Positions 3,535-50,964 of a stretch of 58,579 nt of DNA are shown here, piece after piece (the first letter of the stretch is position 1; each line of letters begins with the position of its first letter). Origin of the DNA: Patescibacteria group bacterium (GTDB lineage Bacteria > Patescibacteriota > Patescibacteriia > 2-12-FULL-57-11); contig SCSU01000061.1 of the NCBI GenBank assembly GCA_004299275.1, positions 1 to 58,579 of the forward strand. Reading direction: 5' to 3'. The notes beneath the pieces are model-generated. The model made no database searches. It saw only the letters and a program-made list of their open reading frames with translations, and was not told where the DNA came from. The position numbers and the translations under genes were made by a program.

Positions 3535-3540
3535 ACTTTC

Positions 3541-3586
3541 CCAAACCCCTCCCCCTGCGGGGACTCCCTTTAGCAAAGGGAGAATC
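3541..3586 (-). repeat. REP-like double hairpin, family A (copy 1 of 4)
   Basis: The reverse complement reads TTCTCCCTTTGCTAAAGGGAGTCCCCGCAGGGGGAGGGGTTTGG, matching the copies at 20679, 37090 and 47135. Confidence 0.85.
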
Positions 3587-3601: not shown

Positions 3602-5725
3602 CTAATAATTACATACCCCGCCGCGGCAGTCGCCGGCAAATTCCGACTCGGCGGTAACGTGGCGTTCCTGGCCGATGATGTCCAGCGTCCCCAAGGTCAG
3701 CACTTGGTCGGGCTTGGAACCGTAGCGATAAACCGTGATGCCTTTGCACTTGAGCTTCCATGCCAAGAGATAGGCCGCGCGCACGTCGGCAACCGTGGCC
3801 TTGGCCGGCAGATTAATGGTTTTGGAAACCGCGTTGTCCGTATATTTTTGAAAAACCGCTTGCATCCTCAAGTGATTCTCGGGAGAGATCTCGAGCGCAG
3901 TCCGAAAGAGTCGGCGCGCGTCCGCGGGGATGCCCTTGATTCCCGCGAGGTTGCCCTTGGCCGCGATTTCAAACAGCAAGTCCGAGGAATAGAAGCCCCG
4001 TTTTTTAGCGAACTCTTCAAAAAGAGGATTGACCTCGAGGAGCCGCGTGCCCTCCATCACATTGCGGACAAAGGCGACGGCAAAGAGCGGCTCAATCCCC
4101 GAGGAGCAGCCGGCGATAATCGAGATGGTGCCGGTCGGCGCGATGGTGGTTGTCGTCGCGTTCCGAAAAGCGCGGTAGCCGCGATGAGCCCAGAGCGAGC
4201 CCTTAAAGTTGGGGAAGGAACCGCGCGAGCGGCCGAGCTCAGCGCTTGCGCGGGAGCTCACGTCGCGGATGCGCTTTATCAGTTTGGCGCCGAACAGGAG
4301 CGCGCGGCGCGAGTCGTAAGGAATCCCGAGTTTAATTAATGTTTCAGCGAAGCCCATAACACCGAGCCCAATCCGGCGGTTCGCCAGCGTGGCGCGTTCA
4401 ATCTCCGGCAGGGGGTAATTGTTGGCGTCAAGCACGTTGTCCAAAAAGCGCACTGCGGTTTTGACTAAATAGTCGAGTTTGGCCCAGTCAAAACGTCCGT
4501 GGACGTCAAAAATTTTGGAGAGATTGATTGAACCGAGCGTGCAGGACTCCCAAGCGTGTAAAGGTTGCTCGCCGCAGGGATTTGTCGCCTCGATTCGTCC
4601 GAGATGCGCGGTCGGGTTTTTGCGGTCAATTTCGTCGAACCAGACCACGCCCGGGTCGCCGGTGCGCCAGGCCTCGGTTACGATTTGGTCAAAGATGTCG
4701 CGCGCCCCGACCCGCTCGCTGACTTTGCCGGAGCGCGGATTCACCAGCGATATTTTGCCGCGGCGGCTGACCGCCCGCATAAAAGCGTCGCTCGCGCCGA
4801 CCGAGAAGTTAAAATTGGAAAACGCTTTGCCGTCGGCTTTGGCCGTCACAAACTCGCGAATGCTCGGATGGGTGACAGCCAAAATCGCCATGTTGGCGCC
4901 GCGCCGTCGCCCGCCTTGTTTAATCACGTCGGTCGTGGTGTCAAAAAGCCGGATAAAAGAGACCGGCCCCGAGGCAATCCCGCCGGTCGAACGCACGATG
5001 TCGCCGCCCGGCCGGATGGCGGAAAAGGAAAAACCGGTGCCGCCGCCGGACTGGTGGATTTTGGCCGCGGCCTTAAGCCCGTCAAAAATGGAATCCAGCG
5101 AATCCTCAATCGGAATGACAAAACAGGCGGCGAGCTGGCCGGAGGGGAGTCCCGCGTTCATGAGCGTCGGCGAGTTGGGTAGGAACTCGCCGTTGGCCAT
5201 CATCCGGTAGAAAGTTTCCTCGGATTCGTCCACCGTGTCGCGCGCGCCGCCGTAGCGCTGTTCCGACTGGGCCACGGCGCGGGCCACGCGCCGGAAGAGC
5301 TGAGAGGGGGTCTCAATTGTCCGGCCCTCGCCGTCTTTTTTAAGATAGCGTTCGGCGAGGACTTTAATCGCGTTTACGCCGAGCTTGAGGTCGTCGCGGA
5401 CGCCGAAAAATTCCTTGATTCGCCGCGTCTTGGTCCGTTCGGCGCGGTAGAGGATAAAGGCCTTGGCCGCGTCAGCGAGTCCGCGCTCCATCAAGGAGTT
5501 TTCCACCGCGTCAGAGACATCTTCCACCGTCGGAATTTTTCGGCCGTAGGCCTCGGCGACAGTCGTCACCACTTGATTGGCTACGGAGCGCGCGACTTTG
5601 CCGTCTGGCCGGCTGACGGCCAGAATCGCTTTTTCCACGGCGCGGGCGATTTTTTCCTCGGAGAATGGCTCCAGCCGTCCGTCGCGTTTGCGGACGAATT
5701 TGGGGATCGCGTTTATCTTGGGCAT
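3602..5725 (-). CDS. nrdJ: adenosylcobalamin-dependent (class II) ribonucleotide reductase with N-terminal ATP-cone
   Basis: 707 aa. ATP-cone VRKRDGRLEPFSEEKIARAVEKA, active-site TNPCGEQPL, and a C-terminal Cys pair CRGGVCNY. Confidence 0.9.
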   Translation of the reverse strand: MPKINAIPKFVRKRDGRLEPFSEEKIARAVEKAILAVSRPDGKVARSVANQVVTTVAEAYGRKIPTVEDVSDAVENSLMERGLADAAKAFILYRAERTKTRRIKEFFGVRDDLKLGVNAIKVLAERYLKKDGEGRTIETPSQLFRRVARAVAQSEQRYGGARDTVDESEETFYRMMANGEFLPNSPTLMNAGLPSGQLAACFVIPIEDSLDSIFDGLKAAAKIHQSGGGTGFSFSAIRPGGDIVRSTGGIASGPVSFIRLFDTTTDVIKQGGRRRGANMAILAVTHPSIREFVTAKADGKAFSNFNFSVGASDAFMRAVSRRGKISLVNPRSGKVSERVGARDIFDQIVTEAWRTGDPGVVWFDEIDRKNPTAHLGRIEATNPCGEQPLHAWESCTLGSINLSKIFDVHGRFDWAKLDYLVKTAVRFLDNVLDANNYPLPEIERATLANRRIGLGVMGFAETLIKLGIPYDSRRALLFGAKLIKRIRDVSSRASAELGRSRGSFPNFKGSLWAHRGYRAFRNATTTTIAPTGTISIIAGCSSGIEPLFAVAFVRNVMEGTRLLEVNPLFEEFAKKRGFYSSDLLFEIAAKGNLAGIKGIPADARRLFRTALEISPENHLRMQAVFQKYTDNAVSKTINLPAKATVADVRAAYLLAWKLKCKGITVYRYGSKPDQVLTLGTLDIIGQERHVTAESEFAGDCRGGVCNY

Positions 5726-5877
5726 ACCCGGTGGTAGAACGCCGACTCGAACCCCGCTTAAGCGGGGTTCGACGAGCGAACACTTTTTACGACTATTAGC
5801 TTTTGTTCTGGGCTCTGCTTCATTGCCTTGAAGAAACTTTGCTCTAGGAACGCTGTCGGCGTTTCACCACCGGGCAT
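5726..5877 (-). promoter_or_regulatory. nrdJ leader cassette: 20-bp stem joining the uORF start to the nrdJ start, plus an internal 26-nt palindrome
   Basis: Minus-sense CCCGGTGGTGAAACGCCGAC (5874-5855) pairs with GTCGGCGTTCTACCACCGGG (5746-5727). Perfect palindrome TCGAACCCCGCTTAAGCGGGGTTCGA lies at 5747-5772. Confidence 0.6.
5758..5877 (-). CDS. conserved small upstream ORF, 39 aa (MPGGETPTAFLEQSFFKAMKQSPEQKLIVVKSVRSSNPA)
   Basis: Hand translation. Paralogue of the 45-aa uORF at 23793-23930: 22/39 identical residues, 12 of them through synonymous codon differences. Confidence 0.55.
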   Translation of the reverse strand: MPGGETPTAFLEQSFFKAMKQSPEQKLIVVKSVRSSNPA

Positions 5878-5885
5878 ACGGGAGT

Positions 5886-5950: not shown

Positions 5951-5981
5951 GAGGTTCGACCTCCTCGGGAGGTCGAACCTC
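5951..5981 (-). terminator. 31-nt palindrome 14 nt downstream of the ileS stop (family B, copy 1 of 2)
   Basis: GAGGTTCGACCTCC-TCG-GGAGGTCGAACCTC, a 14-bp stem. The same element lies 3' of rsmA at 50003-50033. Confidence 0.6.
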
Positions 5982-5994
5982 TGGTGAGCACAGA

Positions 5995-8892
5995 CTAAAC
6001 CTTCTCCAGTCCAATCCAAGCTGTCTCGCCTTGGATTTGCACCTCCGTCGTGTACGGCAGATCGGCGCGGCCGGTCGTTACAGTTTTGGCGCGGACGGCT
6101 TGGCCAAGTTCGGTCTCGACTTTTTTAAATTCGGCGGCAGGCTCGCCAGAAGTTTCGTAAGAGAGATGGATGAAGTCGCTCACGGTGAGTCCGGCACTTT
6201 TTCGGAGCGCCTGGATATGGCGAATCAGCTCGCGCAGAGCGCCGGCGCGTTTGAGTTCCGGCGTTAAAGCCGTATCGAGCGTCACGGAGATTTCCCCGCT
6301 CTTTTTTTGTTCAACGGCGAGAACATTCAGTTCATCGCGGATAATCTCGGCAATTTCATCCGTAAAGGGCGCGCCGGTGAGCACGGCTTTCGCGAGCGGC
6401 TGGCGAGTTGGCATTTTGGCCGCCGACCGCTGTTCCAAGCCGAGCGAGACCACCACCCGCGCTCGCGCCATTTCTTCCAAGAGCTTTTTATCCGACATCT
6501 TTTTTTCAAGTTTGGGCCAATTTTCGAGATGCACTGACTCCATGGAACCTTGGAGTTCGCGGTAAAGCGCCTCGGCGGTAAAGGGCGCGAATGGCGCCAG
6601 CAGTTTGGAAAATTGAAGCAGTGCAAAATGGAGCGTGGCGCTGGCTTGTTTCCCCCCCGCGCCCTTGAACCGCTCGCGGCTGCGGCGGACATACCAAGTG
6701 GAAAGGTCAGTCACAAAGTCAGCGAGCGCTCGCGCCGGCTCGGTGACGCGATATGCTTCGAGGTCGGCTGTGACTTTTTCCGCGAGTTCTGAGAGACGCG
6801 CGAGAATCCAGCGGTCGAGAATGTGACGCGAGGGGATAGTGGATAGTGGATAGTGGATAGAACTGTAAGTTTTGTAGAAGGCGAGCACGTTCCAGAGAAT
6901 CAGGAAAAATTTGCGCTGGAGTTCGGCCAAGTCCTTTTCGTCAAAACGTTTGGCGTCGCCGGGCTGGTTGACCGAGTACATATAGAGCCGCAGGCAGTCG
7001 GCGCCGTATTTCTCAATCATCTGCCAGGGGTCAACCACATTACCTTTGGATTTGGACATTTTTTGCCCCTTGGCATCGAGGAGGTGTCCAAGCGAAATCA
7101 CATTTTTGTAGGGCGCGTCTTTGCCGAGGAGCGCGGCAACGGCGAGCAGGGTATAAAACCAGCCGCGGGTTTGGTCAATCGCCTCGCTGATGTAGTCGGC
7201 GGGAAAAGCTTCGCCGCCATCCACCCGTTTTTTGTTTTCAAACGGATAGTGCCACTCCGCAAAAGGCATGGCGCCGGAATCAAACCAGACGTCAGCGACC
7301 TCTTTGACCCGGCTCATCCAGGCGCCGCATTTTTGGCAGTGGATTTTTAGGGCGTCCACAAAAGGCCGATGGAGGTCAACCGCGCCGCTGTTTTTTGGCA
7401 ACTCGCCGGTCAGTTTTTCCAGTTCTTCAAGCGAGCCGACGCAGAGGCGGTGCTCGCATTTCTCGCATTCCCAAATCGGGAGCGGCGTGCCCCAGTAGCG
7501 CTCGCGGGAAAAAGCCCAGTCCTTGACCGAACGGAGCCACTCGCCAAAGCGGCCTTCCTTTATATATTCCGGCACCCAGTTGATTTGAGCATTGGCGCGA
7601 AGCAGTTTTTCCTGCAGCGCGGTCATCCTAATCCACCACGATTCCTTAGCGTAGTAGAGGAGCGGCGTCCCGCAGCGCCAGCAAAAGGGATAGTCGTGCG
7701 TGTAATCGTAGCTCGCATAGAGCGCGCCGTTTTTTTTCAGACTGGCGATGATTGCCGGATCGGCATCCTTGACGAACTCACCGGCCCAAGGCGTGATCTC
7801 AGGGAGAAACCGGCCATCAGGGTCAACAGTCATCAGCACCGGCAGGTTGTTTCCACGGCCGACGTTGAGGTCATCTTCGCCAAAAGCCGGCGCGATATGG
7901 ACAATGCCCGTGCCTTCTTCGACCGAGACAAAGCTTCCGGCAATCAGCCGGTAAGCGGGCCGGTCGGGTTTAACAAAGGTAAAAAGCGGTTCGTAGCTGA
8001 GGCCAGCGAGCTCGCGGCCCATAACCGAGAAAAGGGTTTTTGAATCGGGGGGGAGGACTTTCTCGGCCAGCGCTTCGGCGACAATCAAAGTTTCTTCGCC
8101 GTTTTTTGCCAGCCGGTAGGTGATGTTCGGCCCGACAGCCAGCGCGACATTGGCCGGGAGTGTCCAAGGGGTCGTGGTCCAAACCAGAAAAAAAGTTTGG
8201 TCGTCGGTCACAATTTCTTTCCCTGACCCTGATTTGATTTTTTGCCCGGCCGCGGCGCGCAGTTTAACGATGACCGACGGCTCGGTGACTTCTTTATAAC
8301 CTAGCGCCACCTCGTGGGAGGAGAGCGCGGTGCCGCAACGGGGGCAATAGGGGACAATTTTGTAGTCTTTGTAGAGCAGTCCTTGGTCCCAGACTTGTTT
8401 GATAATCCACCAAAGCGATTCAATGTAAGGCGTCTCGTAGGTGATGTAGGGGTGCTCCAAGTCCAGCCAAAAACCGATGCGCCTGGTTATTTTGTTCCAA
8501 TCTTCAAGATAAGACCAAACGCTTTTTTTGCATTCGGCGTTGAAAAAGGCGATGGACTCGGCTGGGGTCGCTTTGAGCGATTCAATTTGTTTTTTCCCCG
8601 AGATGCCCAGAGCTTTTTCCACGCCGAGCTCGACCGGCAGGCCGTGGGTGTCCCAGCCGGCTTTGCGTTCCACGCGCCAGCCGGCCATGGTCTTGTAGCG
8701 CGGGAAGAGGTCTTTGAAGGCGCGGGCCTCAACGTGGTGGATGCCCGGCCGTCCGTTCGCGGTCGGCGGGCCCTCAAAAAACACAAAATTGCCGCGGGGA
8801 GATTTTTTTTCCAGCGTTTTTCCAAAAATTTTTTTCTCTTCCCAGAAACGAAGGATTTGTTCTTCCAATTCGGGAAAATTAGGGGCGGGCAT
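5995..8892 (-). CDS. ileS: isoleucine--tRNA ligase
   Basis: 965 aa. PTANGRPGIHH (HIGH-like), KMSKSKGN, class Ia editing and anticodon-binding regions. Confidence 0.95.
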   Translation of the reverse strand: MPAPNFPELEEQILRFWEEKKIFGKTLEKKSPRGNFVFFEGPPTANGRPGIHHVEARAFKDLFPRYKTMAGWRVERKAGWDTHGLPVELGVEKALGISGKKQIESLKATPAESIAFFNAECKKSVWSYLEDWNKITRRIGFWLDLEHPYITYETPYIESLWWIIKQVWDQGLLYKDYKIVPYCPRCGTALSSHEVALGYKEVTEPSVIVKLRAAAGQKIKSGSGKEIVTDDQTFFLVWTTTPWTLPANVALAVGPNITYRLAKNGEETLIVAEALAEKVLPPDSKTLFSVMGRELAGLSYEPLFTFVKPDRPAYRLIAGSFVSVEEGTGIVHIAPAFGEDDLNVGRGNNLPVLMTVDPDGRFLPEITPWAGEFVKDADPAIIASLKKNGALYASYDYTHDYPFCWRCGTPLLYYAKESWWIRMTALQEKLLRANAQINWVPEYIKEGRFGEWLRSVKDWAFSRERYWGTPLPIWECEKCEHRLCVGSLEELEKLTGELPKNSGAVDLHRPFVDALKIHCQKCGAWMSRVKEVADVWFDSGAMPFAEWHYPFENKKRVDGGEAFPADYISEAIDQTRGWFYTLLAVAALLGKDAPYKNVISLGHLLDAKGQKMSKSKGNVVDPWQMIEKYGADCLRLYMYSVNQPGDAKRFDEKDLAELQRKFFLILWNVLAFYKTYSSIHYPLSTIPSRHILDRWILARLSELAEKVTADLEAYRVTEPARALADFVTDLSTWYVRRSRERFKGAGGKQASATLHFALLQFSKLLAPFAPFTAEALYRELQGSMESVHLENWPKLEKKMSDKKLLEEMARARVVVSLGLEQRSAAKMPTRQPLAKAVLTGAPFTDEIAEIIRDELNVLAVEQKKSGEISVTLDTALTPELKRAGALRELIRHIQALRKSAGLTVSDFIHLSYETSGEPAAEFKKVETELGQAVRAKTVTTGRADLPYTTEVQIQGETAWIGLEKV
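6834..6860. repeat. heptamer tandem array (GGATAGT)x~4 inside the ileS coding sequence, in frame
   Basis: Direct reading. Encodes IHYPLSTIP just before the conserved ILDRWIL. Confidence 0.9.
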
Positions 8893-8914
8893 ACCCGGCA
8901 GTAGAATTTGTTAG

Positions 8915-8960
8915 CACGGACCTTGAAGGTCCGTTTTCACAGACCTTCAAGGTCCGTGTC
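8915..8960. repeat. GACCTTGAAGGTC double-palindrome module (family C, copy 1 of 3) in the ileS 5' leader
   Basis: CACGGACCTTGAAGGTCCGTTTTCACAGACCTTCAAGGTCCGTGTC. Near-identical copies lie at 13007 and 49134. Confidence 0.85.
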
Positions 8961-8971
8961 CAGCTTGGAAA

Positions 8972-13006: not shown

Positions 13007-13050
13007 ACAGACCTTGAAGGTCTGTAAAAACGGACCTTCAAGGTCTGTGC
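13007..13050. repeat. GACCTTGAAGGTC double-palindrome module (family C, copy 2 of 3) in the tkt 5' leader
   Basis: ACAGACCTTGAAGGTCTGTAAAAACGGACCTTCAAGGTCTGTGC. Confidence 0.85.
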
Positions 13051-13073
13051 TCGCGATCTATTACCTACCGAGT

Positions 13074-13961
13074 ATGCCCCAAGTTACGCGCCAGCCGGAA
13101 CATCTCCACGACAAAAAATTGAAACAGCTCGAGGAGCGGGCGATGAAAATCCGCGAGGATATTATTGCCATGCTGACCGAAGCCGGGAGTGGCCATTCTG
13201 CCGGACCGCTGGGTATGGCCGATATTTTTACCGCGCTCTACTTCCACGTTCTTGTCCACGACCCGAAAAAACCGGACTGGCCCGAGCGCGACATCTTGCT
13301 CCTCTCAAACGGCCACATTTGTCCGGTGCGCTACGTAGCCATGGCTCATGCCGGTTACATCCCGAAGCGCGAGCTGATGACTCTGCGCAAATTCGGCTCG
13401 CGTCTCCAGGGGCATCCCGAGCGCGTTCGCTGGCCGGCACTTGAATCCACCTCCGGCCCCTTGGGTTCCGGGCTCCCCATTGGCGCCGGCATGGCCTACG
13501 CCTATAAGTATTTGGATAATAAACCCAACCGTGTTTTTGTGATTTCAAGCGACGGCGAGCTTGAGGCCGGGGTCAACTGGGAGGCGGCGCTTTTCGCGGC
13601 GCGCAACCGTCTGCATAATCTGACTTGGATTATTGACCGCAACAACATCCAGATTGACGGCTATACCGAGGACATCATGCCGCTCGAATCGCTCACGGAA
13701 AAATTTATGGCTTTCAATTTTCATGTATTGGAGATTGACGGACACAACATCCGCGAGTTCGTGGACGCGGTGGAGGAGGCCCGCGCGGTCTGGGAAAAGC
13801 CGACAGTGATTATCGCCCACACCATCCCCGGCCGGGGCGTGGATTTTATGGAGTTCGAGCCCTATTGGCACGGCGTGCCGCCCAAGCGCGGCGAGGAGGC
13901 GGAAAAGTCGCTGGCCGCGCTCCGGACGCTCGGGGGACGGATTGTGAGTGAGCATGAGTGA
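13074..13961 (+). CDS. transketolase, N-terminal (TPP/PP-domain) subunit
   Basis: MPQVTRQ...SGHSAGPLGMADIFTALYF...SSDGELEAGVNWEA. Start moved from 13014 to ATG 13074 because the upstream part is the repeat module. Confidence 0.85.
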   Translation: MPQVTRQPEHLHDKKLKQLEERAMKIREDIIAMLTEAGSGHSAGPLGMADIFTALYFHVLVHDPKKPDWPERDILLLSNGHICPVRYVAMAHAGYIPKRELMTLRKFGSRLQGHPERVRWPALESTSGPLGSGLPIGAGMAYAYKYLDNKPNRVFVISSDGELEAGVNWEAALFAARNRLHNLTWIIDRNNIQIDGYTEDIMPLESLTEKFMAFNFHVLEIDGHNIREFVDAVEEARAVWEKPTVIIAHTIPGRGVDFMEFEPYWHGVPPKRGEEAEKSLAALRTLGGRIVSEHE

Positions 13962-13967
13962 AGACGT

Positions 13968-15119
13968 ATGCCATTTGGAATAAATCCTAAGGCAAAATTG
14001 GTCAAAAATTTATTCGCCGCGGACATTGAACTCAAACCGACCCGCGATGGCTATGGTTTGGGTTTGGTGGATGCCGGCAAAAAGGACGCCAAGGTGGTCG
14101 TGCTTTGCGCCGACCTTTCCGAATCCACCCGCTCGCATTGGTTTAAAAAAGAATTCCCCGCTCGCTTTGTGCAGATTGGCGTCTCCGAACAGTCCATGGC
14201 CGCGATTGCCTCGGGCTTAGCGCTGGCCGGCAAGGTGCCGTTTATCTCAAGCTACGCCGGTTTTTCCCCGGGCCGGAATTGGGAACAGATTCGGACGACG
14301 ATTACCTTGAACGACGCCAACGTCAAAGTCGCCGGCGCGCACGCCGGGGTCTCGGTCGGTCCGGATGGCGCCACGCACCAGATGACCGAAGACCTCGCGC
14401 TGATGCGTACTCTGCCGAACATGGTAGTTCTCGCGCCGTGCGATATGCAGGAAACCAAAAAGGCCACGGTCGCGGTGGCGGGTGTTTACGGTCCGCACTA
14501 TCTCCGTTTCGGCCGCGAGAAATCGCCGGTGTTCACCACGCCGGCCACACCTTTTAAAATAGGGCGAGCAGAAATTTTCCGTTTCGGCCGCGATGTGACG
14601 ATTGTCGCCTGCGGTATTTTGGTTCACGAGGCGCTCAAGGCGGCGGAGGAACTCCGCAAAAAAGGCATTGAGGCCGAGGTGATTGATTCTCACACGATTA
14701 AGCCGCTGGACGCCAAAACAATTCTCGCTTCAATTGCGAAAACCGGCTGCGTGGTGACAGTGGAAGAGCATCAGGTTGACGGCGGGTTGGGAGCGGCAGT
14801 CGCTGAAGCGCTTGGGGCGGCTCGGCCGGTGCCTTTAGAGCGGATTGGTGTGCAGAATCGTTACGGCGAGTCAGGTGAGCCGATAATGCTCCTCGAGGCC
14901 TTCGGTTTAACTTCGCCTTATATCGCAATGGCCGCGCGACGGGCGACTGCGCGAAAAGCAGGGAAAAAAGTGTCGGAAGTCCCGGATTATATGGCGGCGG
15001 CAGAGCGACGTGCCGTTGAACTAAAAAAACAAGTGATTAGCGAAGCGCTCTCCCGCGCGCCGCGGGAGTGGGGAGGAAAAAAGGGAAACATTAAAGACCT
15101 AATTAAAAAAAGTAAGTAG
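13968..15119 (+). CDS. transketolase, C-terminal (Pyr/C-domain) subunit with ~60-aa basic C-terminal extension
   Basis: FVQIGVSEQSMAAIASGLA...GPDGATHQMTEDLALMRTLPNM. The tail ..KKGNIKDLIKKSK extends beyond the usual length. Confidence 0.85.
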   Translation: MPFGINPKAKLVKNLFAADIELKPTRDGYGLGLVDAGKKDAKVVVLCADLSESTRSHWFKKEFPARFVQIGVSEQSMAAIASGLALAGKVPFISSYAGFSPGRNWEQIRTTITLNDANVKVAGAHAGVSVGPDGATHQMTEDLALMRTLPNMVVLAPCDMQETKKATVAVAGVYGPHYLRFGREKSPVFTTPATPFKIGRAEIFRFGRDVTIVACGILVHEALKAAEELRKKGIEAEVIDSHTIKPLDAKTILASIAKTGCVVTVEEHQVDGGLGAAVAEALGAARPVPLERIGVQNRYGESGEPIMLLEAFGLTSPYIAMAARRATARKAGKKVSEVPDYMAAAERRAVELKKQVISEALSRAPREWGGKKGNIKDLIKKSK

Positions 15120-16527: not shown

Positions 16528-16564
16528 GCGATTAGCGATAAGCTATAAGCGATTAGCGATAAGC
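16528..16564. repeat. heptamer array, GATAAGC orientation (right arm of cassette 1), ends at the fba ATG
   Basis: GCGATTA GCGATAA GCTATAA GCGATTA GCGATAA GC-ATG. Reverse complement of the left-arm units. Confidence 0.85.
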
Positions 16565-18704: not shown

Positions 18705-18754
18705 TCGCTTAGCGCGTATCGCCGGCGATATGCGATTGGCGATAAGCGATATGC
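18700..18754. repeat. back-to-back inverted heptamer arrays of the GATAAGC family with no cargo
   Basis: GCTAATC GCTTAGC GCGTATC GCC|GGC GATATGC GATTGGC GATAAGC GATATGC. Palindromic about GCCGGC. Confidence 0.8.
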
Positions 18755-19755: not shown

Positions 19756-19783
19756 GTAGTACATAGAACGTAGAACATAGAAA
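19756..19783. repeat. heptamer array, GTAGAAC orientation (left arm of cassette 2)
   Basis: GTAGTAC ATAGAAC GTAGAAC ATAGAAA. Ends 3 nt before the cassette ATG. Confidence 0.85.
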
Positions 19784-19786
19784 TGT

Positions 19787-20191
19787 ATGCGGGTGAGTTC
19801 ATATAAGGATTTGATTGTTTGGCAGAAGGCAATGCAGCTTGTGAAAAAAGTGTATTCTCTAACACAGCTGCTACCCCGGGAGGAGCTGTATGGCCTCGCG
19901 AGTCAAATGAAGCGCGCCGCGGTTTCTGTCCCGTGCAATATCGCAGAGGGATTCAGGCGAAACCACCGGCAAGAGCAAATCCAGTTCTTTGCGGTCTCGT
20001 ATGGCTCGGGTGCTGAACTGGAAACTCAGATTGAGATTTGCAAGCAGCTCGGTTTTGCAAAAGCGGAACAGACCAAGGTCGCAGAGGATATTCTCAATGA
20101 GGTGATGAGGATGCTTAACACATTTTCCATTCCCATGAGCCGACGCCTCCAAGATTCAACTACCAACTACGTTCTACGTTCTACGTTCTGA
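19787..20191 (+). CDS. four-helix-bundle protein (23S rRNA intervening-sequence protein / Avd-like family)
   Basis: LIVWQKAMQLVKKVYSLTQLLPREELYGLASQMKRAAVSVPCNIAEG. The C-terminal TTNYVLRSTF is encoded by the right-arm heptamers. Confidence 0.85.
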   Translation: MRVSSYKDLIVWQKAMQLVKKVYSLTQLLPREELYGLASQMKRAAVSVPCNIAEGFRRNHRQEQIQFFAVSYGSGAELETQIEICKQLGFAKAEQTKVAEDILNEVMRMLNTFSIPMSRRLQDSTTNYVLRSTF

Positions 20192-20678: not shown

Positions 20679-20735
20679 ATTCTCCCTTTGCTAAAGGGAG
20701 TCCCCGCAGGGGGAGGGATTTAGGTTGGAGGGTAT
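20679..20735 (+). repeat. REP-like double hairpin, family A (copy 2)
   Basis: ATTCTCCCTTTGCTAAAGGGAGTCCCCGCAGGGGGAGGGATTTAGGTTGGAGGG, starting 4 nt after the stop codon. Confidence 0.85.
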
Positions 20736-21462: not shown

Positions 21463-21482
21463 CTTTATTATCGGAATGAAAA

Positions 21483-21513
21483 ACACCCCGACCTGCGTCG
21501 GGGTGTTTTTTTT
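21483..21513. terminator. bidirectional rho-independent terminator between convergent genes
   Basis: ACACCCCGAC-CTGC-GTCGGGGTGT flanked by AAAA and TTTTTTT. Confidence 0.75.
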
Positions 21514-21583
21514 GGACCCAGTGGGAATCGAACCCACATCTTCCGGATGCAAACCGGATGCTCTACCACTAAGCTATGGGCCC
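21513..21583 (-). tRNA. tRNA-Ala (anticodon UGC)
   Basis: GGGCCCA..GCTTAGTGGTAGAGC..TCCGG-TTTGCAT-CCGGA..GTGGGTTCGATTCCCAC-TGGGTCC-A. G3:U70 is present. Confidence 0.85.
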
Positions 21584-21669: not shown

Positions 21670-21702
21670 CAAAAACACCCCCCGATGTACATCGGGGGGT
21701 GT
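21670..21702 (-). terminator. rho-independent terminator after the RRM-protein gene
   Basis: ACACCCCCCGAT-GTAC-ATCGGGGGGTGT with a T run on the minus strand. Confidence 0.7.
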
Positions 21703-21725
21703 TTGGCTTGAAAACCGCGGGAGCT

Positions 21726-22579: not shown

Positions 22580-23705
22580 GCTCCACCCTGATTTTTTGGA
22601 GCATTAGTTTTTCGGCATCAAGCAGGGAAATTCCACCGATGGCAAAGGCGGCTTGGCGCGGCGCGCCGGTCGGCGCCCAGTCGCGGACGAGCTGGAGCGC
22701 GTCAAGGTTGCGGTTCGTGTGGAGGAGTCCGGAGACGCCGCCGGCGTTATTTTCGTAAAGTACAAAAGAGACAGCTACTTCGGGCGAGGCGGCGATGAGC
22801 TCATCCAAGACGCCGGCGAGTTCCGTCTCGCCGCCGCCGGCGGCCACGAAATCCTGGCGGGTGAGCAGGGCCCAGGCGATTTTGTGCTCGCTGTCTTGGC
22901 GGAGCCGGGCGAGCGCGCGACCCCAGAGCCGGAGGGTCGTCACTGTGCGCGTCCGGTAGAGCTCGGCGACAATCCGTTCGCGGTCGGCGCCGTCTTCGAC
23001 GAGCTTGGCGGCCGTGGCTAGAGTCCGGGGCGAGACGTTTCCAGTTTTAAAACTTTTGGTTTTGGCGATTACGCCGGCCAAGAGCGCGGTCGAGAGCGCC
23101 CGGTCAAGCTTGGCGTCCGGCCATCGGGCGAGGAGCTCGGCGACAACTTCCGAGACGGAAGCGGCGGTGAGGTCCACCAAGTTTATATTGCCGTAGTGTT
23201 CGTTGGTCGGCGAGTGGTCGAGGTTCGCGACCGGCACGGAACGCCAAAACTCCGGTGCCTGACGCCAAAGCGCGCCCAAGGCCTCGTGGTCAGGACAGCC
23301 GACGGTAATCGCCAAGTCGTAACGGCAGCGTCCAGGCTCGGCCCGGACCTGTTCCGGGCTCCAATTTTCTTTCTCCGGCGTCAAGGTGATTTTAAGTTCG
23401 TCACCGGAGACGGCATAGTGAAGGTTCGCGAGTTTGGCCGGGCCGAGCGGCAGAGTGATGACCAAATTGGCCAGCCCGGGCAGATGGCTTTTGATTGTCT
23501 CGGCGTCAGGCAGGAGCCCGTGTTCCGGCCTCAAAACAAAGCCGTCGCCGACAGTGTCCACTGACTTGCCCTGAGCGCGGAGCAGGCGGCGGAGCGTTAG
23601 GCCGGCCGCGGTCTCATCAACGCCGGCAAGGTGGGGTAGCGCAATCAGAATACGCTGGCTGCGCCGGGCTGCCTCCAAAAACTGTTCGTGCGGTTCGAGT
23701 GCCAT
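22569..23705 (-). CDS. DHH/DHHA1-family (NrnA-like) protein with degenerate catalytic motifs
   Basis: 378 aa. Architecture and the LDHSP...NLVD block resemble NrnA. DHH reads DHS, and the GGGH position reads PTGAPRQAAF. Confidence 0.55.
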   Translation of the reverse strand: MALEPHEQFLEAARRSQRILIALPHLAGVDETAAGLTLRRLLRAQGKSVDTVGDGFVLRPEHGLLPDAETIKSHLPGLANLVITLPLGPAKLANLHYAVSGDELKITLTPEKENWSPEQVRAEPGRCRYDLAITVGCPDHEALGALWRQAPEFWRSVPVANLDHSPTNEHYGNINLVDLTAASVSEVVAELLARWPDAKLDRALSTALLAGVIAKTKSFKTGNVSPRTLATAAKLVEDGADRERIVAELYRTRTVTTLRLWGRALARLRQDSEHKIAWALLTRQDFVAAGGGETELAGVLDELIAASPEVAVSFVLYENNAGGVSGLLHTNRNLDALQLVRDWAPTGAPRQAAFAIGGISLLDAEKLMLQKIRVELKG

Positions 23706-23752
23706 GGGGTAGAATTGGTAAAGTAAGACACCTTACCCGCTCCCTTTAATTT

Positions 23753-23782
23753 TTGCAACCCGCCCCGTCCGCTTGTTATAGT
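23753..23782 (+). promoter_or_regulatory. promoter-like TTGCAA - 18 nt - TGTTATAGT upstream of the valS leader
   Basis: Sequence match only. The -10 ends 10 nt before the uORF ATG. Confidence 0.4.
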
Positions 23783-23792
23783 TCCCTGCAGT

Positions 23793-23930
23793 ATGCCCGG
23801 TAGTGAAACGCCGGCAGCATGCATAGAACAAGGTTTCTTAAGGGCTATAAAACTGAATCAAGAGCAAACGCTCTTAATCGCAAAGAATGTCCGTTCGCCG
23901 AATCCAGCCCCTGTTTCCGGTAATGGGTGA
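23793..23930 (+). CDS. conserved small upstream ORF, 45 aa (MPGSETPAACIEQGFLRAIKLNQEQTLLIAKNVRSPNPAPVSGNG)
   Basis: Hand translation. Paralogue of the nrdJ uORF, with a third-codon-position substitution pattern between the two. Confidence 0.55.
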   Translation: MPGSETPAACIEQGFLRAIKLNQEQTLLIAKNVRSPNPAPVSGNG

Positions 23931-24016
23931 AATTCAAACAAGGTGCAGCATTAAAACAATAATTATTCGCCGACAGAAACAGGGGCTGGGTTCGGAGCCG
24001 GCGTTCTACTACCGGG
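23796..24016 (+). promoter_or_regulatory. valS leader structure: 20-bp closing stem plus inner 14-bp stem
   Basis: CCCGGTAGTGAAACGCCGGC (23796-23815) pairs with GCCGGCGTTCTACTACCGGG (23997-24016). CCAGCCCCTGTTTC (23904-17) pairs with GAAACAGGGGCTGG (23976-89). Confidence 0.6.
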
Positions 24017-24017
24017 T

Positions 24018-26804
24018 ATGACTAAGAAAATTGAACTCCCCAAGTCCTACGCCCCCAAGGACTACGAAGACGCGCTTTACCGCCAATGGGAAAAGAGCGG
24101 GTTTTTTAATCCGGACAAATTGCCCGGCCGGCGTCCGGATTCTTACTGTATTGTGATGCCGCCGCCGAACGTCACCGGCGTTTTGCACATCGGCCACGCG
24201 GTGATGCTCGCGATTGAAGACCTGCTGATTCGTTTTGAGCGCCTGCGCGGGAAAAAAACGCTCTGGCTCCCGGGCACCGACCACGCCGCGATTGCCACCC
24301 AGAACAAGGTGGAAAAGCTCCTTTGGGAGAAGGAAAAGAAAACCCGCCACGCTCTCGGCCGCGAAAAATTTTTGGCGCGGGTTAAAAACTTCGCGCAGGA
24401 GTCGCACGACACGATTGTCACTCAAGTCAAAAAGATGGGCTCCTCCTGCGACTGGTCGCGCGAGGCCTACACTTTGGACGCGCCGCGCGTTCAGGCCGTG
24501 GCCGAGGCCTTCCGGCGATTGCATGAAATGGGACTGATTTACCGCGGCCAGCGGGTTGTTAACTGGTGCCCGCACTGTCAGTCAACGCTCTCTGACGACG
24601 AGGTAGCGTACCGGCCGGCCAAGGAGAAGCTCTATTGGATTAAATACGGACCCTTTGTTTTGGCCACCGCCCGTCCCGAAACCAAACTAGGGGACACCGC
24701 CGTGGCCGTGCACCCCCAAGACCAGCGCTACAAAAAATACGTGGGCCGGCGTTTCAAGATTCCCGGCGTGCTCGGCGAATTTGAAGTCGTGGTCGTGGCT
24801 GACGGGGTAGTGGACAGGGAGTTCGGTTCGGGGATGATTAAGGTTACCCCGGCCCATGATTTTACCGACTTTGAGATCGCGGCGCGCCACGGCGTTCCAA
24901 TGCGTCAAGTAATTGGCGAAGACGGCCGGATGATGGCGAATACCGGCAAATATGCCGGGCTCACCACCGCCGAGGCGCGCGCGGCGATTGTCCGCGACAT
25001 GGAGAAAATGGGTTTGATTGAAAAGATTGAAGAATACGAGCATAACCTCTCGGTCTGCTATCGTTGCGGCACGACGATTGAGCCGTTGCCTAAACTCCAG
25101 TGGTTTATCGCGGTCAATAAACCTTTTACCTTTCGCCAGTCAGCGCGGTCTCCGATTAAAGACATCGGCGACGGCGAAAAAATCACGCTCAAAGAGCTGA
25201 TGAGTCACGTGGTCAAAACTGGCCAGATTCAAATCATCCCCGACCGTTTTGTCAAAACCTATTTCCACTGGATTGACAATCTCCGCGACTGGAACATCTC
25301 GCGTCAGATTTGGTTCGGCCACCGGATCCCAGTTTGGCACCACGATACCTGTCAGATGCTTGGCATCATGGACACAATGCACCAGCCTGACACATGGATG
25401 CGGGATGCTTATGTTATTTTGGATAAACCATTGGATGAGTATGCCGACGACGAGATCGTTTATTGTGGGAAGTGCAAGAACGGTTACACCATCAAAAAGA
25501 TAAAGGAGGGTCATTTTACACAGGATCCGGACACGCTGGACACCTGGTTTTCTTCCGGGCTCTGGACTTTTTCCACGCTCGGCTGGCCGGCGGAGATGGC
25601 GGATTTTAAAAATTATCATCCGACCGCGGTGCTCGAGACTGGTTATGACATTCTTTTCTTTTGGGTGGCGCGGATGATTTTGATGTCGCTCGCGCTGATC
25701 GGCGAGATTCCTTTCAAAACAGTTTATTTGCACGGACTGGTGCGCGACGAGCAGGGGAGGAAGATGAGCAAGTCACTCGGGAACGTGATTGACCCGCTCG
25801 CGGTCGCCGCCAAGTACGGGACTGACGCCGTGCGGCTCTCGCTCGTGCTCGGCACGACGCCCGGGAACGACACCCGGCTCTCGGAAGAAAAAATCGCCGG
25901 CTTCCGCAATTTTACCAACAAGCTGTGGAATATCGGACGGTTCGTGTTGAGCCAAACCTCAATTTCCAAATTCCAAATTCCAAATTCCAAAACTTTGCCC
26001 GACCGCTGGATTCTTTCCCGCTTGTCCGAGGTGACCGAGCGGGTGACGCGGCATCTGGAAAATTATGAATTTTCCGCGGCCGGCGAAATTCTGCGCGATT
26101 TTACCTGGGGCGATTTTGCCGATTGGTACTTGGAAATCAGCAAAGTTCAAAAACAGAGTTCACCCGCGCTCGCCAAAAACACCGATTTAATTCTCCGTCA
26201 CACCCTCGCGGTTCTCCTTAAGCTCTGGCATCCCTTTATGCCTTATGTGACCGAGGTTCTGTGGCGAGAACTTCAAGGAAAAGAGGGCGGTTTGCTTTTG
26301 GTCGCGTCCTGGCCGGCGCCGGGGGCACGGGAGGCGCGAGCCGAGCAAGCGATGAAGAACTGGCAGGAGACGGTCGCCGCGATCCGCAATCTCCGCGCCG
26401 AATACAAGGTGCCGCCGGAGCGGGAAGTTGAGGCCGAAATCGTCAGCGCGCCGGCTGGATTGTCCGAGGAGCTCGCTTGGCTCGAAAAATTGTCTCGGAG
26501 CAAAATCAGCGCTGTTAAAAAAGCTGAGAAAAAAGGCCAGGCGGCCGCGCTCGCCGGCTCCATGGAAATTTATGTTGACCTCGCCGGAGCGGTTGACCGA
26601 GGGCGGGAGTCCGCCCGGCTTCAAAAAGAGCGGGAGAGTTTAGAGAGTTATCTCGCCGCCTTGGAGGCCAAACTAAAAAATAATGACTTTTTGAAACGAG
26701 CGCCGTCGGCGGTGGTGGAAAAGGAAAAAGAAAAAGCCGCGGCGGCGCGCGACAAACTGGCGCGAATCCGCCGCGAGCTCACATCGCTTGGTGCGGACGG
26801 TTGA
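24018..26804 (+). CDS. valS: valine--tRNA ligase
   Basis: 928 aa. PPPNVTGVLHIGHA, KMSKSLGN, and a C-terminal coiled coil. Confidence 0.95.
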   Translation: MTKKIELPKSYAPKDYEDALYRQWEKSGFFNPDKLPGRRPDSYCIVMPPPNVTGVLHIGHAVMLAIEDLLIRFERLRGKKTLWLPGTDHAAIATQNKVEKLLWEKEKKTRHALGREKFLARVKNFAQESHDTIVTQVKKMGSSCDWSREAYTLDAPRVQAVAEAFRRLHEMGLIYRGQRVVNWCPHCQSTLSDDEVAYRPAKEKLYWIKYGPFVLATARPETKLGDTAVAVHPQDQRYKKYVGRRFKIPGVLGEFEVVVVADGVVDREFGSGMIKVTPAHDFTDFEIAARHGVPMRQVIGEDGRMMANTGKYAGLTTAEARAAIVRDMEKMGLIEKIEEYEHNLSVCYRCGTTIEPLPKLQWFIAVNKPFTFRQSARSPIKDIGDGEKITLKELMSHVVKTGQIQIIPDRFVKTYFHWIDNLRDWNISRQIWFGHRIPVWHHDTCQMLGIMDTMHQPDTWMRDAYVILDKPLDEYADDEIVYCGKCKNGYTIKKIKEGHFTQDPDTLDTWFSSGLWTFSTLGWPAEMADFKNYHPTAVLETGYDILFFWVARMILMSLALIGEIPFKTVYLHGLVRDEQGRKMSKSLGNVIDPLAVAAKYGTDAVRLSLVLGTTPGNDTRLSEEKIAGFRNFTNKLWNIGRFVLSQTSISKFQIPNSKTLPDRWILSRLSEVTERVTRHLENYEFSAAGEILRDFTWGDFADWYLEISKVQKQSSPALAKNTDLILRHTLAVLLKLWHPFMPYVTEVLWRELQGKEGGLLLVASWPAPGAREARAEQAMKNWQETVAAIRNLRAEYKVPPEREVEAEIVSAPAGLSEELAWLEKLSRSKISAVKKAEKKGQAAALAGSMEIYVDLAGAVDRGRESARLQKERESLESYLAALEAKLKNNDFLKRAPSAVVEKEKEKAAAARDKLARIRRELTSLGADG
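25964..25991. repeat. heptamer tandem array (TTCCAAA)x4 inside the valS coding sequence, in frame
   Basis: Direct reading. Encodes ISKFQIPNSK just before the conserved LPDRWIL. Confidence 0.9.
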
Positions 26805-33944: not shown

Positions 33945-34083
33945 GCCTTCGCCAAGGCTTCGGCTGGCAAGCCAGATGTAGCTCAAGCGACGGCTGGCAT
34001 GCCGGCAGGAAGGTTTGGCGAAGGCTGTCCTTCGTAGCTTGCAGAGCGAAGAAGGGCAAAAGACGCTCCGACGAACGTCGGAG

Positions 34084-34160
34084 CGTCTTTAATGGGCGGT
34101 TAGCTCAGCTGGTTAGAGCGTCTCGTTTACACCGAGAAGGTCGTAGGTTCGAATCCTACA
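34084..34160 (+). tRNA. tRNA-Val (anticodon UAC), CCA encoded
   Basis: GGGCGGTTAGCTCAGCTGGTTAGAGCG-TCTCG-TTTACAC-CGAGA-..GTAGGTTCGAATCCTAC-ACCGCCC-ACCA. Confidence 0.9.
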
Positions 34161-34163
34161 CCG

Positions 34164-34189
34164 CCCACCAAAGCACCCCGACGCATGTC
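34164..34189 (+). terminator. rho-independent terminator after tRNA-Val
   Basis: CACCCCGAC-GCAT-GTCGGGGTG followed by TTTT. Confidence 0.75.
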
Positions 34190-34257
34190 GGGGTGTTTTG
34201 TATCTTGACTAATTTTAAATTTCCTTTATATTTCTGTCGTCCCCTGAGGAGGAAACG

Positions 34258-37089: not shown

Positions 37090-37145
37090 ATTCTCCCTTT
37101 GCTAAAGGGAGTCCCCACAGGGGGAGGGATTTAGATTGGAGGGCA
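37090..37145 (+). repeat. REP-like double hairpin, family A (copy 3)
   Basis: ATTCTCCCTTTGCTAAAGGGAGTCCCCACAGGGGGAGGGATTTAGATTGGAGGG, starting 6 nt after the yraN stop. Confidence 0.85.
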
Positions 37146-37255: not shown

Positions 37256-37290
37256 CTACTCACGACTCACTATTCCCGACTCACTACTTT
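37256..37290. repeat. heptamer array, CGACTCA family, ends 1 nt before the nusA ATG
   Basis: CTACTCA CGACTCA CTATTCC CGACTCA CTACTTT. Confidence 0.8.
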
Positions 37291-39868: not shown

Positions 39869-39896
39869 GGATTTCGGATTTCGGAATTTGGGATTT
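39869..39896. repeat. heptamer array GGATTTC GGATTTC GGAATTT GGGATTT
   Basis: Direct reading. Lies 10 nt upstream of ATG 39907. Confidence 0.75.
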
Positions 39897-44169: not shown

Positions 44170-44179
44170 AAAAGAGTAC

Positions 44180-44207
44180 GTAGAACGTAGAACATAGAAC
44201 TAAACAC
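44180..44207. repeat. heptamer array, GTAGAAC family
   Basis: GTAGAAC GTAGAAC ATAGAAC TAAACAC, starting 11 nt after the groEL stop. Confidence 0.8.
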
Positions 44208-47134: not shown

Positions 47135-47178
47135 ATTCTCCTTTTCTAAAGGGAGTACCCGAAGGGGGAGGGATTTAT
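47135..47178 (+). repeat. REP-like double hairpin, family A (copy 4, diverged)
   Basis: ATTCTCCTTTTCTAAAGGGAGTACCCGAAGGGGGAGGGATTTATG. Confidence 0.8.
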
Positions 47179-47183
47179 GAATA

Positions 47184-47242
47184 ATAGCGAATAGCGAATA
47201 GCGAATGAAAGCGAATTCAAAGCAAATAACAGCGAATAGCAG
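47184..47242. repeat. heptamer array (ATAGCGA)x3 plus degenerate units, ends at the tsaC ATG
   Basis: ATAGCGA ATAGCGA ATAGCGA ATGAAAG CGAATTC AAAGCAA ATAACAG CGAATAG CAG-ATG. Confidence 0.8.
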
Positions 47243-47902
47243 ATGGCAATAACTCGTAGCAATATTCGCGCGGCGGTGGAGGTTCTTAAAAAAGGCGGGT
47301 TGGTTATTTATCCCACGGAGACTGCTTACGCCCTTGGCTGTGACAGTCGGAACCTGAGCGCTGTCCGTCGTATCTATGCGCTTAAAGGCCGTCAGCGGCA
47401 GAAACCGCTTGCGCTCATCGCCGCCGGCCTCAAAATGGTCAAACATTTTTTTCGATTCACGACTCACTATCCCGCCTTTGACGGGACCCCCCGCCTCTGG
47501 CGGGGTGGCTCACGGCTCACTCGCAAGCACTGGCCCGGCCCCTTGACGCTTGTTCTTCCAGTAAAGAATCCCCGTCTCCGACGCGCGCTTGGAGCGCGCG
47601 AGGTCGGCGTGCGCGTCTCGCCGCAGGCGGTTGCCCGAGCTCTTTCCAAATATCTCGGCGCGCCGATTGTCGCCACTTCGGCCAACCGAAGCGGTAAAGG
47701 GAATTGTTATTCAATTCGCGCGGTCCGCCGTTCCTTCGGCCTTTCACGAGATTGGACTCCGACGTTACGTCGGAGTCCAATCTCGAAAGTCGTGTTTATC
47801 CTCGACTCCGGTCATCTTCCGCGGCGGAGACCGTCAACCGTAGTCGCTTTCCGCAAAGGTAAACCAATAGTCCTCCGGCAGGGACCAATTAGGATTTCGT
47901 AA
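47243..47902 (+). CDS. tsaC: L-threonylcarbamoyladenylate synthase (YrdC/Sua5 family) carrying two in-frame repeat insertions
   Basis: GGLVIYPTETAYALGCD...YALKGRQRQKPLALI...HWPGPLTLVLP...ATSANRSG...PSTVV. Confidence 0.85.
   Translation: MAITRSNIRAAVEVLKKGGLVIYPTETAYALGCDSRNLSAVRRIYALKGRQRQKPLALIAAGLKMVKHFFRFTTHYPAFDGTPRLWRGGSRLTRKHWPGPLTLVLPVKNPRLRRALGAREVGVRVSPQAVARALSKYLGAPIVATSANRSGKGNCYSIRAVRRSFGLSRDWTPTLRRSPISKVVFILDSGHLPRRRPSTVVAFRKGKPIVLRQGPIRIS
47456..47524 (+). repeat. double-hairpin repeat, family E (copy 1 of 2), inside tsaC and in frame
   Basis: TTCACGACTCACTATCCCGCCTTTGACGGGACCCCCCGCCTCTGGCGGGGTGGCTCACGGCTCAC. Encodes THYPAFDGTPRLWRGGSRLT. Confidence 0.85.
47751..47781. repeat. 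31-nt perfect palindrome inside tsaC, in frame
   Basis: ATTGGACTCCGACGT-T-ACGTCGGAGTCCAAT. Encodes RDWTPTLRRSPI. Related CCGACG-N-CGTCGG hairpins lie at 34058-34090 and 50858-50880. Confidence 0.85.
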
Positions 47903-49100: not shown

Positions 49101-49182
49101 ATGCCCGGTAGTGAAACGCCGACGGCAAGCCGGACACAGACCTTGAAGGTCTGTAAAAACGGACCTTCAAGGTCTGTGTGTA
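49101..49182 (+). promoter_or_regulatory. rsmA leader: uORF head (ATGCCCGGTAGTGAAACGCCGAC) fused to the family C module
   Basis: The first 9 codons, MPGSETPTA, match the nrdJ/valS uORF heads. There is no 3' arm. The frame is open into rsmA. Confidence 0.6.
49134..49180. repeat. GACCTTGAAGGTC double-palindrome module (family C, copy 3 of 3)
   Basis: ACACAGACCTTGAAGGTCTGTAAAAACGGACCTTCAAGGTCTGTGTG. Confidence 0.85.
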
Positions 49183-49988: not shown

Positions 49989-50002
49989 TTTATGCTCGCC
50001 AG

Positions 50003-50033
50003 AGGTTCGACCTCCTCGGGAGGTCGAACCTCG
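50003..50033 (+). terminator. 31-nt palindrome 14 nt after the rsmA stop (family B, copy 2)
   Basis: GAGGTTCGACCTCC-TCG-GGAGGTCGAACCTC. Its flanks also match the ileS copy in the same gene-relative orientation. Confidence 0.6.
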
Positions 50034-50745: not shown

Positions 50746-50787
50746 GTGAGTAGTGAGTAGAACGTAGAACATAGAACGTAGTATTTA
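50746..50787. repeat. heptamer array GTGAGTA GTGAGTA GAACGTA GAACATA GAACGTA GTATTTA
   Basis: Direct reading. Starts 5 nt after the stop codon. Confidence 0.8.
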
Positions 50788-50900: not shown

Positions 50901-50964
50901 CTCACGACTCACGATCCCGCCTTTGGCGGGACCCCCCGCCGCTGGCGGGGTGGCTCACTACGCC
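50901..50964 (+). repeat. double-hairpin repeat, family E (copy 2), immediately upstream of the giant ORF
   Basis: CTCACGACTCACGATCCCGCCTTTGGCGGGACCCCCCGCCGCTGGCGGGGTGGCTCACTACGCC. Confidence 0.85.

Follow-up and report, generated by a model that had tools for sequence, protein, structure and literature searches.

The contig SCSU01000061.1 of assembly GCA_004299275.1 comes from a Patescibacteria group bacterium, and all 58,579 nt of it were analysed (the window). A block of 225 nt lies between the promoter of valS, an aminoacyl-tRNA synthetase gene, and the valS start codon. [quoted passage not shown] Comparisons within the window and with related genomes show a repeated element which is an insertion when set against the related loci. 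The same cassette precedes unrelated genes; it is therefore not a valS-specific leader. A preliminary description of this DNA had proposed two readings. One was a translation-coupled leader, in which ribosomes on a short upstream open reading frame (ORF) melt the stem that buries the valS start. The other was a small selfish cassette which inserts at TATG starts and borrows the promoter and ATG of its host. The second reading is supported by a diverged second copy with the same flanks at another start, by three partial copies at further starts, by relatives in which valS and nrdJ follow their promoters directly and lack the cassette, and by similar elements with 4-bp flanking repeats in a related genome. 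The first is not supported as the account of a dedicated valS regulator, because the cassette stands before unrelated genes and no Rfam or attenuator signature is present. Translation coupling is nevertheless plausible as the way in which the host gene stays translated after insertion.

Structure of the cassette before valS

Copy 1 and its surroundings comprise the following parts; terminal inverted repeats are abbreviated as TIRs.

23753..23782, + strand: host promoter-like site; TTGCAA, 18 nt, TG-extended -10 box TATAGT
23792..23795, + strand: left flanking TATG, the ATG of which starts the cassette ORF
23793..23930, + strand: cassette ORF (upstream ORF, uORF) of 45 codons, MPGSETPAACIEQGFLRAIKLNQEQTLLIAKNVRSPNPAPVSGNG; stop codon TGA at 23928-30
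23796..23815, + strand: left TIR, the 5' arm of the outer stem, CCCGGTAGTGAAACGCCGGC
23898..23917, + strand: 5' half of the inner stem, overlapping the final uORF codons
23976..23995, + strand: 3' half of the inner stem, pairing with 23898-23917
23997..24016, + strand: right TIR, the 3' arm of the outer stem, GCCGGCGTTCTACTACCGGG
24017..24020, + strand: right flanking TATG, holding the valS start codon (valS, 24018-26804)

The promoter, the 45-codon uORF near its -10 box and the TATG on both arms are all present in the sequence as the preliminary description had them, the promoter with an upstream TG in addition. It is the sole promoter-like site in 23650-24100, and none was found within the cassette in either copy 1 or the second full copy. 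The uORF opens 10 nt downstream of the -10 box. Cassette ORFs (39-45 codons) have no start codon of their own and rely on the flanking ATG; the ATG of the left TATG is probably the original valS start position. valS itself starts at 24018 and encodes 928 aa with the Pfam domains tRNA-synt_1, Anticodon_1 and Val_tRNA-synt_C. Over 5.5 kb, cassette included, the sequence agrees at 100% identity with a separate Logan assembly contig (SRR8426596), which possibly derives from the same reads as the window.

Folding of copy 1 reproduces the closing stem proposed earlier: 23796-23815 pairs with 23997-24016 through 18 Watson-Crick pairs and one G.U pair, with one A/C mismatch. The flanking UAUG/UAUG can contribute four extra pairs (U.G, A-U, U-A, G.U), which would place both AUGs inside the helix. 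The inner stem had been described as 14 bp long with the uORF stop codon in its loop; the stop codon is in the loop, but the stem measures 20 bp. The minimum free energy (MFE) is -101 kcal/mol, compared with -63.7 +/- 5.0 kcal/mol for 200 dinucleotide shuffles, none of which equalled it (z = -7.47). Such shuffled controls had been named as a check in the preliminary description, and the native fold is far better than they are.

The uORF of copy 1 is in frame with valS, but two in-frame stop codons (TGA and TAA) lie between the two. Read-through into valS, with TGA read as Gly under genetic code 25, was rejected on account of these stops and of the long table-11 ORFs in the window. Ribosome hopping of the T4 gene 60 kind was rejected as well, since a landing at the candidate codon GGG (24014-16) would not be in the valS frame.

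Further copies and relatives without the cassette

Four occurrences of the arm motif are present in the window, where 0.01 would be expected. Across copies the TIRs are 20 bp long and imperfect (CCCGGTRGTGAAACGCCGRC ... GYCGGCGTTCTACYACCGGG). Positions 5762-5884 and 23786-23908 share a 123-nt match of 75% identity, and the two full copies are also about 75% identical. Further copies are located as follows.

5723..5878, - strand: copy 2, a full cassette preceding a class II ribonucleotide reductase gene (nrdJ, 3602-5725)
5878-5875, 5874-5855, 5746-5727 and 5726-5723, - strand: left TATG, left arm, right arm and right TATG of copy 2
5877-5758 and 5772-5747, - strand: ORF (39 aa) and inner hairpin of copy 2, with the TAA stop codon in a TTAA loop
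49100..49184, + strand: copy 3, a hybrid; TATG, left arm (49104-49123), double-hairpin module (49136-49178), TATG
8893..8967, - strand: copy 4, a hybrid; double-hairpin module (8916-8958), right-arm remnant TTCTACTGCCGGG (8906-8894) and T
13007..13076, + strand: copy 5; double-hairpin module (13007-13049) and a degenerate right-arm-like sequence ending ...CCGAGTATG

In the alignment of copies 1 and 2 the TATG flanks, the arms, the ORF frame and the inner hairpin all match. Copy 2 has the TG-extended -10 box TGTTACAAT 8 nt upstream, and the reductase gene downstream encodes an ATP-cone plus ribonucleotide reductase domains. Its MFE is -80.3 kcal/mol (z = -9.6). From ATG to ATG the cassette measures 225 nt in copy 1 and 152 nt in copy 2, which is out of frame with its host gene.

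The other three copies are partial or hybrid. Copy 3 begins directly 3' of the stop codon of an upstream major facilitator superfamily gene; its 81 nt are in frame and stop-free, adding 27 codons to rsmA, the conserved start of which is the ATG at 49182. Copy 4 adjoins the ATG (8892) of an ileS-like gene. Copy 5 ends at the start of a transketolase gene (ATG 13074); its homology to the arm, assessed by visual inspection, is weak. The double-hairpin module common to these three copies is 43 nt long (ACAGACCTTGAAGGTCTGT AAAA ACGGACCTTCAAGGTCTGTG). In each case it is situated between a start codon and the promoter or gene that precedes it, and in two of three cases it is joined to one cassette arm. 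In copies 3 and 5 it translates as LKVCKNGPSRSV, in frame with the host gene. nhmmer and tblastn searches of the window and of nine relatives' loci found no copies beyond copies 1 to 3. The preliminary description had named a lack of homologous peptides or arm pairs in related genomes as grounds for refutation; none were found in other genomes, and the homologues lie within the same genome instead.

Judged by valS, the organism belongs in Patescibacteria near Uhrbacteria and Magasanikbacteria, with a best match of only 61% identity. Synteny is kept in the relative L051, where a divergent DHH-like gene (44% identity, full length) is followed by valS (61% identity). The spacer between these genes is 70 nt in L051 versus 312 nt in the window, the latter being 87 nt plus the 225-nt cassette. 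The cassette is absent at valS of L047, L049 and L051, and in all three valS starts 6-9 nt past a TG-extended -10 box. It is also absent at nrdJ in L052-L056 (four nrdJ relatives, 67-75% identity); the start lies 6-9 nt (in one, 14 nt) after an extended -10 box at three of the four loci. The L056 locus reads TGTTAGAAT-GTAACCGT-ATGCCAAAG, with 8 nt from the -10 box to the start, and that of the window reads TGTTACAAT-ACTCCCGT-ATG(cassette)ATGCCCAAG, with 8 nt from the -10 box to the ATG. A comparison of the two reveals that removal of the cassette and one TATG gives the relatives' arrangement to the nucleotide.

The spacing between -10 box and start suggests that valS and nrdJ mRNAs of the relatives are leaderless or near-leaderless. 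The closest nrdJ relative (75%, L052/L053) has a leader of about 30 nt, rich in CCACCTCCC, between the TG-extended -10 box and the ATG; the promoter-to-start distance of nrdJ thus varies within the clade. Shine-Dalgarno-like sequences are almost absent upstream of starts in the window, where GGAGG precedes one or two genes (e.g. at 34258).

Cassettes of a similar kind are found in the Uhrbacteria genome GCA_016181485.1 (L049), the source of three elements with CCCNG...CNGGG ends.

8142-8245, - strand: TIR cassette
5228-5334: TIR cassette
14385-14516: TIR cassette

One family has a member (TATG-CCCCGCACATAA...TTATGTGCGGGG-TATG) on the conserved start codon of a DHH-family gene, and a second member which is intergenic and flanked by TTGA/TTGA. 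It is characterised by TIRs, 4-bp flanking repeats, AT-rich non-conserved interiors and an ORF of only four codons. The different flanks of its two members favour a real 4-bp duplication in L049. Given the TTGA-flanked copy, these appear to be ordinary TIR elements with a 4-bp target duplication, for which start codons are not the sole landing sites. A separate element, CCCGTTAGAGAT...ATCTCTAACGGG, sits on the infB start; it has the flanks ATGAAT/ATGAAT and a 26-codon ORF. The first scan of L049 demanded ATG on both sides and was biased in that respect; the second was unbiased and needed a 10-nt exact seed. The sharing of CCCNG...CNGGG termini may point to a single superfamily. CC ends together with duplications of 4-5 bp are features of IS1380-type elements, which provides only a lead.

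Constraint on the cassette and translation of the host gene

The pairing of the stems is conserved between the two full copies. In the outer stem, 23 pairs are retained by RNAalifold; none is broken, and at two a compensatory change has replaced both partners (A-U by G-C and G-C by A-U). The base of the inner hairpin has a C-G to U-A change, read directly from the sequences. In both full copies 18 of the 20 arm positions are complementary, and the G.U and A/C interruption in the middle of the stem is kept; copies 3 and 4, which have a single arm each, likewise keep the arm sequences that correspond to it.

The substitutions in the ORF are of a coding type. Only frame 0, the frame of the ATG, is open in both full copies. 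The two ORFs differ at 30 sites, distributed 7/8/15 over codon positions, which amount to 12 synonymous and 17 non-synonymous codon changes in frame 0 as against 6/20 and 2/21 in the other frames. The Nei-Gojobori (NG86) estimate of omega is 0.27 (p = 0.005), a result overstated by the dominance of transitions (20:10). Because of this 2:1 bias, simulations were used instead, in which the number of changes and the transition/transversion ratio were held fixed. The probability of at least 12 synonymous changes and no stop codon is then about 0.0007-0.0009, and 5 x 10^-5 for codons 9-39. The BLOSUM score of the pair is marginal (p about 0.02 by simulation). The peptide appears to have been translated and selected, on evidence which is real but modest. 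It belongs to no Pfam family and has no homologue in a word-index search; HMMER against 1.84 billion representative proteins returned two partial-profile matches only, both to large multi-stretch repeat proteins. The notion that the ORF is an N-terminal fragment of a transposase found no support, as none of these searches gave a homologue.

The mechanism proposed here starts from a cassette that sits exactly on a start codon. The left ATG, at the old host start, would now open the cassette ORF; this old initiation position would be leaderless in the case of valS and nrdJ, and stop-start coupled in the case of rsmA. Ribosomes would consequently translate the cassette ORF first. The right TATG regenerates the host start, which is located at the base of a stem of 20-24 bp that involves ORF codons 2-8. 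Since the left arm is codons 2-8, a translating ribosome would have to melt the stem that buries the host AUG; ribosomes loading co-transcriptionally on the 5'-proximal AUG could open the left arm in this way and release the host AUG. In both full copies the ORF extends across the 5' half of the inner hairpin to a stop codon in the loop, and ribosomes terminating there may re-initiate on the host start. That host translation is sustained by coupling to the cassette ORF is a substantial possibility, although short of probable.

More tentatively, the cassette may represent an undescribed class of element in the candidate phyla radiation (CPR), a 'start-codon hijacker': TIR cassettes that insert exactly at the (T)ATG of leaderless or translationally coupled genes and express from it their own conserved peptide of 39-45 aa. 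If so, the regenerated start codon would be handed back to the host gene inside a TIR stem. Expression of valS and nrdJ would depend on translation of the cassette or on RNA processing, making the element hard to lose, and the CCCNG...CNGGG ends and ATG-containing flanks in Uhrbacteria would point to a clade-wide phenomenon. A mobile element would then occupy the most sensitive nucleotides of essential genes without killing the host, by means of start duplication and coupling. This would be a natural 'leaderless bicistronic' design in CPR/Patescibacteria, in which translation initiation is essentially unstudied. It would also point to a conserved orphan micro-protein carried on a MITE, which is unusual. 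For annotation, such cassettes can mimic long structured 5' leaders or N-terminal extensions (as in rsmA), and miscalled riboswitches or starts are possible.

Other explanations accept the same cassette and differ as to its effect. The main alternative to coupling is cleavage: RNase III or another nuclease specific for double-stranded RNA might cut the 20-24-bp stem, removing the cassette RNA and leaving a near-leaderless host mRNA with a very short, unstructured 5' end, translated as the original leaderless message was; a need for processing would then account for the conservation of the stems. In length the stem suffices for this, and it ends 1 nt before the host AUG in both full copies. Compensatory changes keep a pairing not strictly required by simple coupling, and Correia elements located between promoter and gene are transcribed and cleaved by RNase III (PMC2649163). 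Cleavage is nonetheless unlikely: it leaves the synonymous excess in the ORF unexplained, and the conserved G.U and A/C interruption may disfavour it. Coupling and cleavage are inseparable by sequence alone. An inert MITE is somewhat more improbable again. The insertion would be merely tolerated and the ORF incidental, with the host gene translated by internal initiation when the stem breathes; the substitutions and the covariation of the arms would stem from two diverged master copies or from constraints of transposase recognition. The L049 family, with its TIRs, 4-bp repeats, non-conserved AT-rich interiors and 4-codon ORF, speaks for this reading, and the lack of peptide homologues among the representative proteins fits as well, as does an AlphaFold model consisting of one low-confidence helix (predicted local distance difference test score, pLDDT, 70). 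However, the synonymous excess is confined to frame 0, a compensatory change is also found in the inner hairpin, where no transposase-binding end lies, and a stem of about -35 kcal/mol covering the start codons of two essential genes would carry a heavy fitness cost if not compensated.

A dedicated cis-regulatory leader of valS (T-box-like, riboswitch or attenuator), sensing valine or the charging of tRNA-Val, is largely refuted and has become very improbable. Such a leader would suit the position upstream of an aminoacyl-tRNA synthetase gene, the extensive structure and the presence of a leader ORF, and a right-arm remnant also precedes the ileS-like gene. Against it, the cassette stands before the ribonucleotide reductase gene and, in part, before the rsmA and transketolase genes, and it is absent at valS of all relatives examined. 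The peptide has only two Val among 45 residues and no run of them; the + strand from the uORF to valS is free of terminator-like sites. The preliminary description had assigned the region to no described leader class, and in agreement with this Rfam gives no such match even at E <= 10, and no T-box. A permissive scan of 23600-24200 returned only weak generic-hairpin matches (miRNA etc.) with E values of at least 0.05, far below gathering scores, while the whole window at the gathering threshold yields four tRNAs only.

Several points weigh against a mobile cassette at start codons, which is still the preferred reading, and against the coupling. Scans of other genomes and of metagenomes yielded no copy. 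The arm pattern has two chance matches in high-GC coding DNA among GTDB genomes, 38 matches in JGI metagenomes (all high-GC, lacking both the TATG flank and the right arm) and five chance matches in IMG/VR, in scans which used exact patterns and so miss diverged copies; blastn against plasmids and phages gave no match. Mobility is hence inferred and not observed. The window contains no autonomous partner or transposase with cassette ends, and the exact-pattern scans produced only the chance matches given above. The 'empty sites' are orthologous loci of distant lineages (61-75% protein identity) and not polymorphic empty sites. T occupies position -1 in 28 of 37 ATG starts in the window; since T-ATG is the normal start context, a TATG 'duplication' is inseparable from a TATG carried by the element. 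All copies, two full and three partial or hybrid, come from one 58-kb window, and it is on these that orientation and start-codon specificity rest. The preference for start codons may be due in part to selection against insertion elsewhere, the genome being gene-dense. As regards the ORF, the significant coding signal derives from one pair of copies only, and the plain amino-acid identity of the pair is not unusual in simulation. The distance from the uORF stop codon to the valS ATG in copy 1 is 87 nt, long for simple termination-reinitiation.

Comparison with known systems and other repeats in the window

The cassette has the structural attributes of a MITE, an autonomous partner and an unambiguous target duplication apart: it is small (MITEs measure about 50-500 bp), has TIRs but no transposase gene, and is dispersed in two full and three partial or hybrid copies over 58 kb. 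Orthologous valS and nrdJ sites differ by its presence or absence, the relatives concerned being distant (61-75% protein identity). Mobile insertion cassettes (MICs) are TIR-flanked passenger ORFs without a transposase; they run to kilobases and hold whole genes together with the signals for expressing them. The cassette is likewise bounded by TIRs, transposase-less and equipped with a passenger ORF, but it measures only 150-225 nt and its ORF needs the ATG of the target.

Correia elements of Neisseria (CREE/NEMIS) are similar in size (about 100-230 bp), TIRs, short direct repeats, the existence of several diverged copies and the lack of a transposase. They are often located 5' of genes, and between promoter and gene they form a transcribed hairpin which affects expression (PMC2649163). 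There is no sequence similarity; the arms of the cassette are CCCGGTRGTGAAAC... and its flank is TATG (4 bp) instead of TA. Unlike Correia elements, the two full and three partial copies all abut a start codon in one orientation, in a CPR host. The cassette also has a start-less ORF with coding-type substitutions, and it supplies the host with a start codon, not a promoter.

Rickettsia palindromic elements (RPE) are said to have been described by Ogata et al. 2000 as small mobile palindromes in coding regions, which are read through within the host protein. The cassette resembles them as a small palindromic mobile element that ends up translated, copy 3 being an open, in-frame 27-codon extension of RsmA. 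It differs in that the two full cassettes are located upstream of the ORF of the host, each with a separate stop codon, and form no fusion with the host's protein. In the MS2 coat-replicase interaction ('Min Jou') and in E. coli rpmI-rplT, a downstream start is sequestered by codons of an upstream ORF, the translation of which opens it. Codons of the cassette ORF similarly pair over the host start and may couple its translation to their own. Those systems are fixed phage or operon features with Shine-Dalgarno starts, whereas the cassette would be a mobile import into probably leaderless genes devoid of Shine-Dalgarno sequences. The leaderless small ORFs upstream of mycobacterial genes also consist of a short ORF at the 5' end of the transcript or a few nt from it, before a housekeeping gene (PMC4633059). 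They are not known as repeated mobile cassettes, nor as being enclosed by TIRs as the cassette is. The cassette is neither a Correia element nor an RPE, nor does it belong to the Rfam leaders or attenuators. Searches of the literature brought up no account of a cassette of such a kind placed at start codons. To our knowledge, the combination of strict one-orientation placement at start codons, an ORF with a captured ATG, a host start regenerated in the TIR and a CPR host is undescribed.

Repeats of other types are common. Tandem repeats with a period of 7 nt and 3-5 units are pervasive in the window, both in 5' intergenic spacers and within conserved genes.

25960-25991: in valS
6834-6860: in the ileS-like gene
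49308-49340, 49530-49561 and 49830-49858: in rsmA
16528-16564, 18724-18751, 19757-19782, 20167-20189, 37258-37288, 39869-39896, 44178-44200, 47183-47206 and 50757-50781: intergenic

The (CAAATTC)n repeat of valS encodes SKFQIPNS in a variable loop, and the Uhrbacteria valS P0004 has SKFQIPNSKF at the same place. valS P0002 and P0007 carry 'PYTL' at that loop, which is the translation of the (CCCTATA)n repeat of rsmA.

Further families of short palindromic or double-hairpin repeats, e.g. ATTCTCCCTTTGCTAAAGGGAGTCCCCGCAGGGGGAGGGATTT, are scattered between genes. In the relative L047, the region upstream of valS holds a comparable GGGGAGG/CCTCCCC double hairpin.

3540-3585, 20679-20724, 37090-37132 and 47140-47181: palindromic or double-hairpin repeats
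5951-5981 and 50002-50032: palindromic repeat pair
47457-47513 and 50902-50958: palindromic repeat pair

Related perfect hairpins of 30 nt (AAAACACCCCGAC...GTCGGGGTGTTTT) occur at 21480-21509, 21674-21703, 34060-34089 and 34170-34199. They adjoin the tRNA genes at 21513-21583 and 34094-34167, and may be terminators or processing sites.

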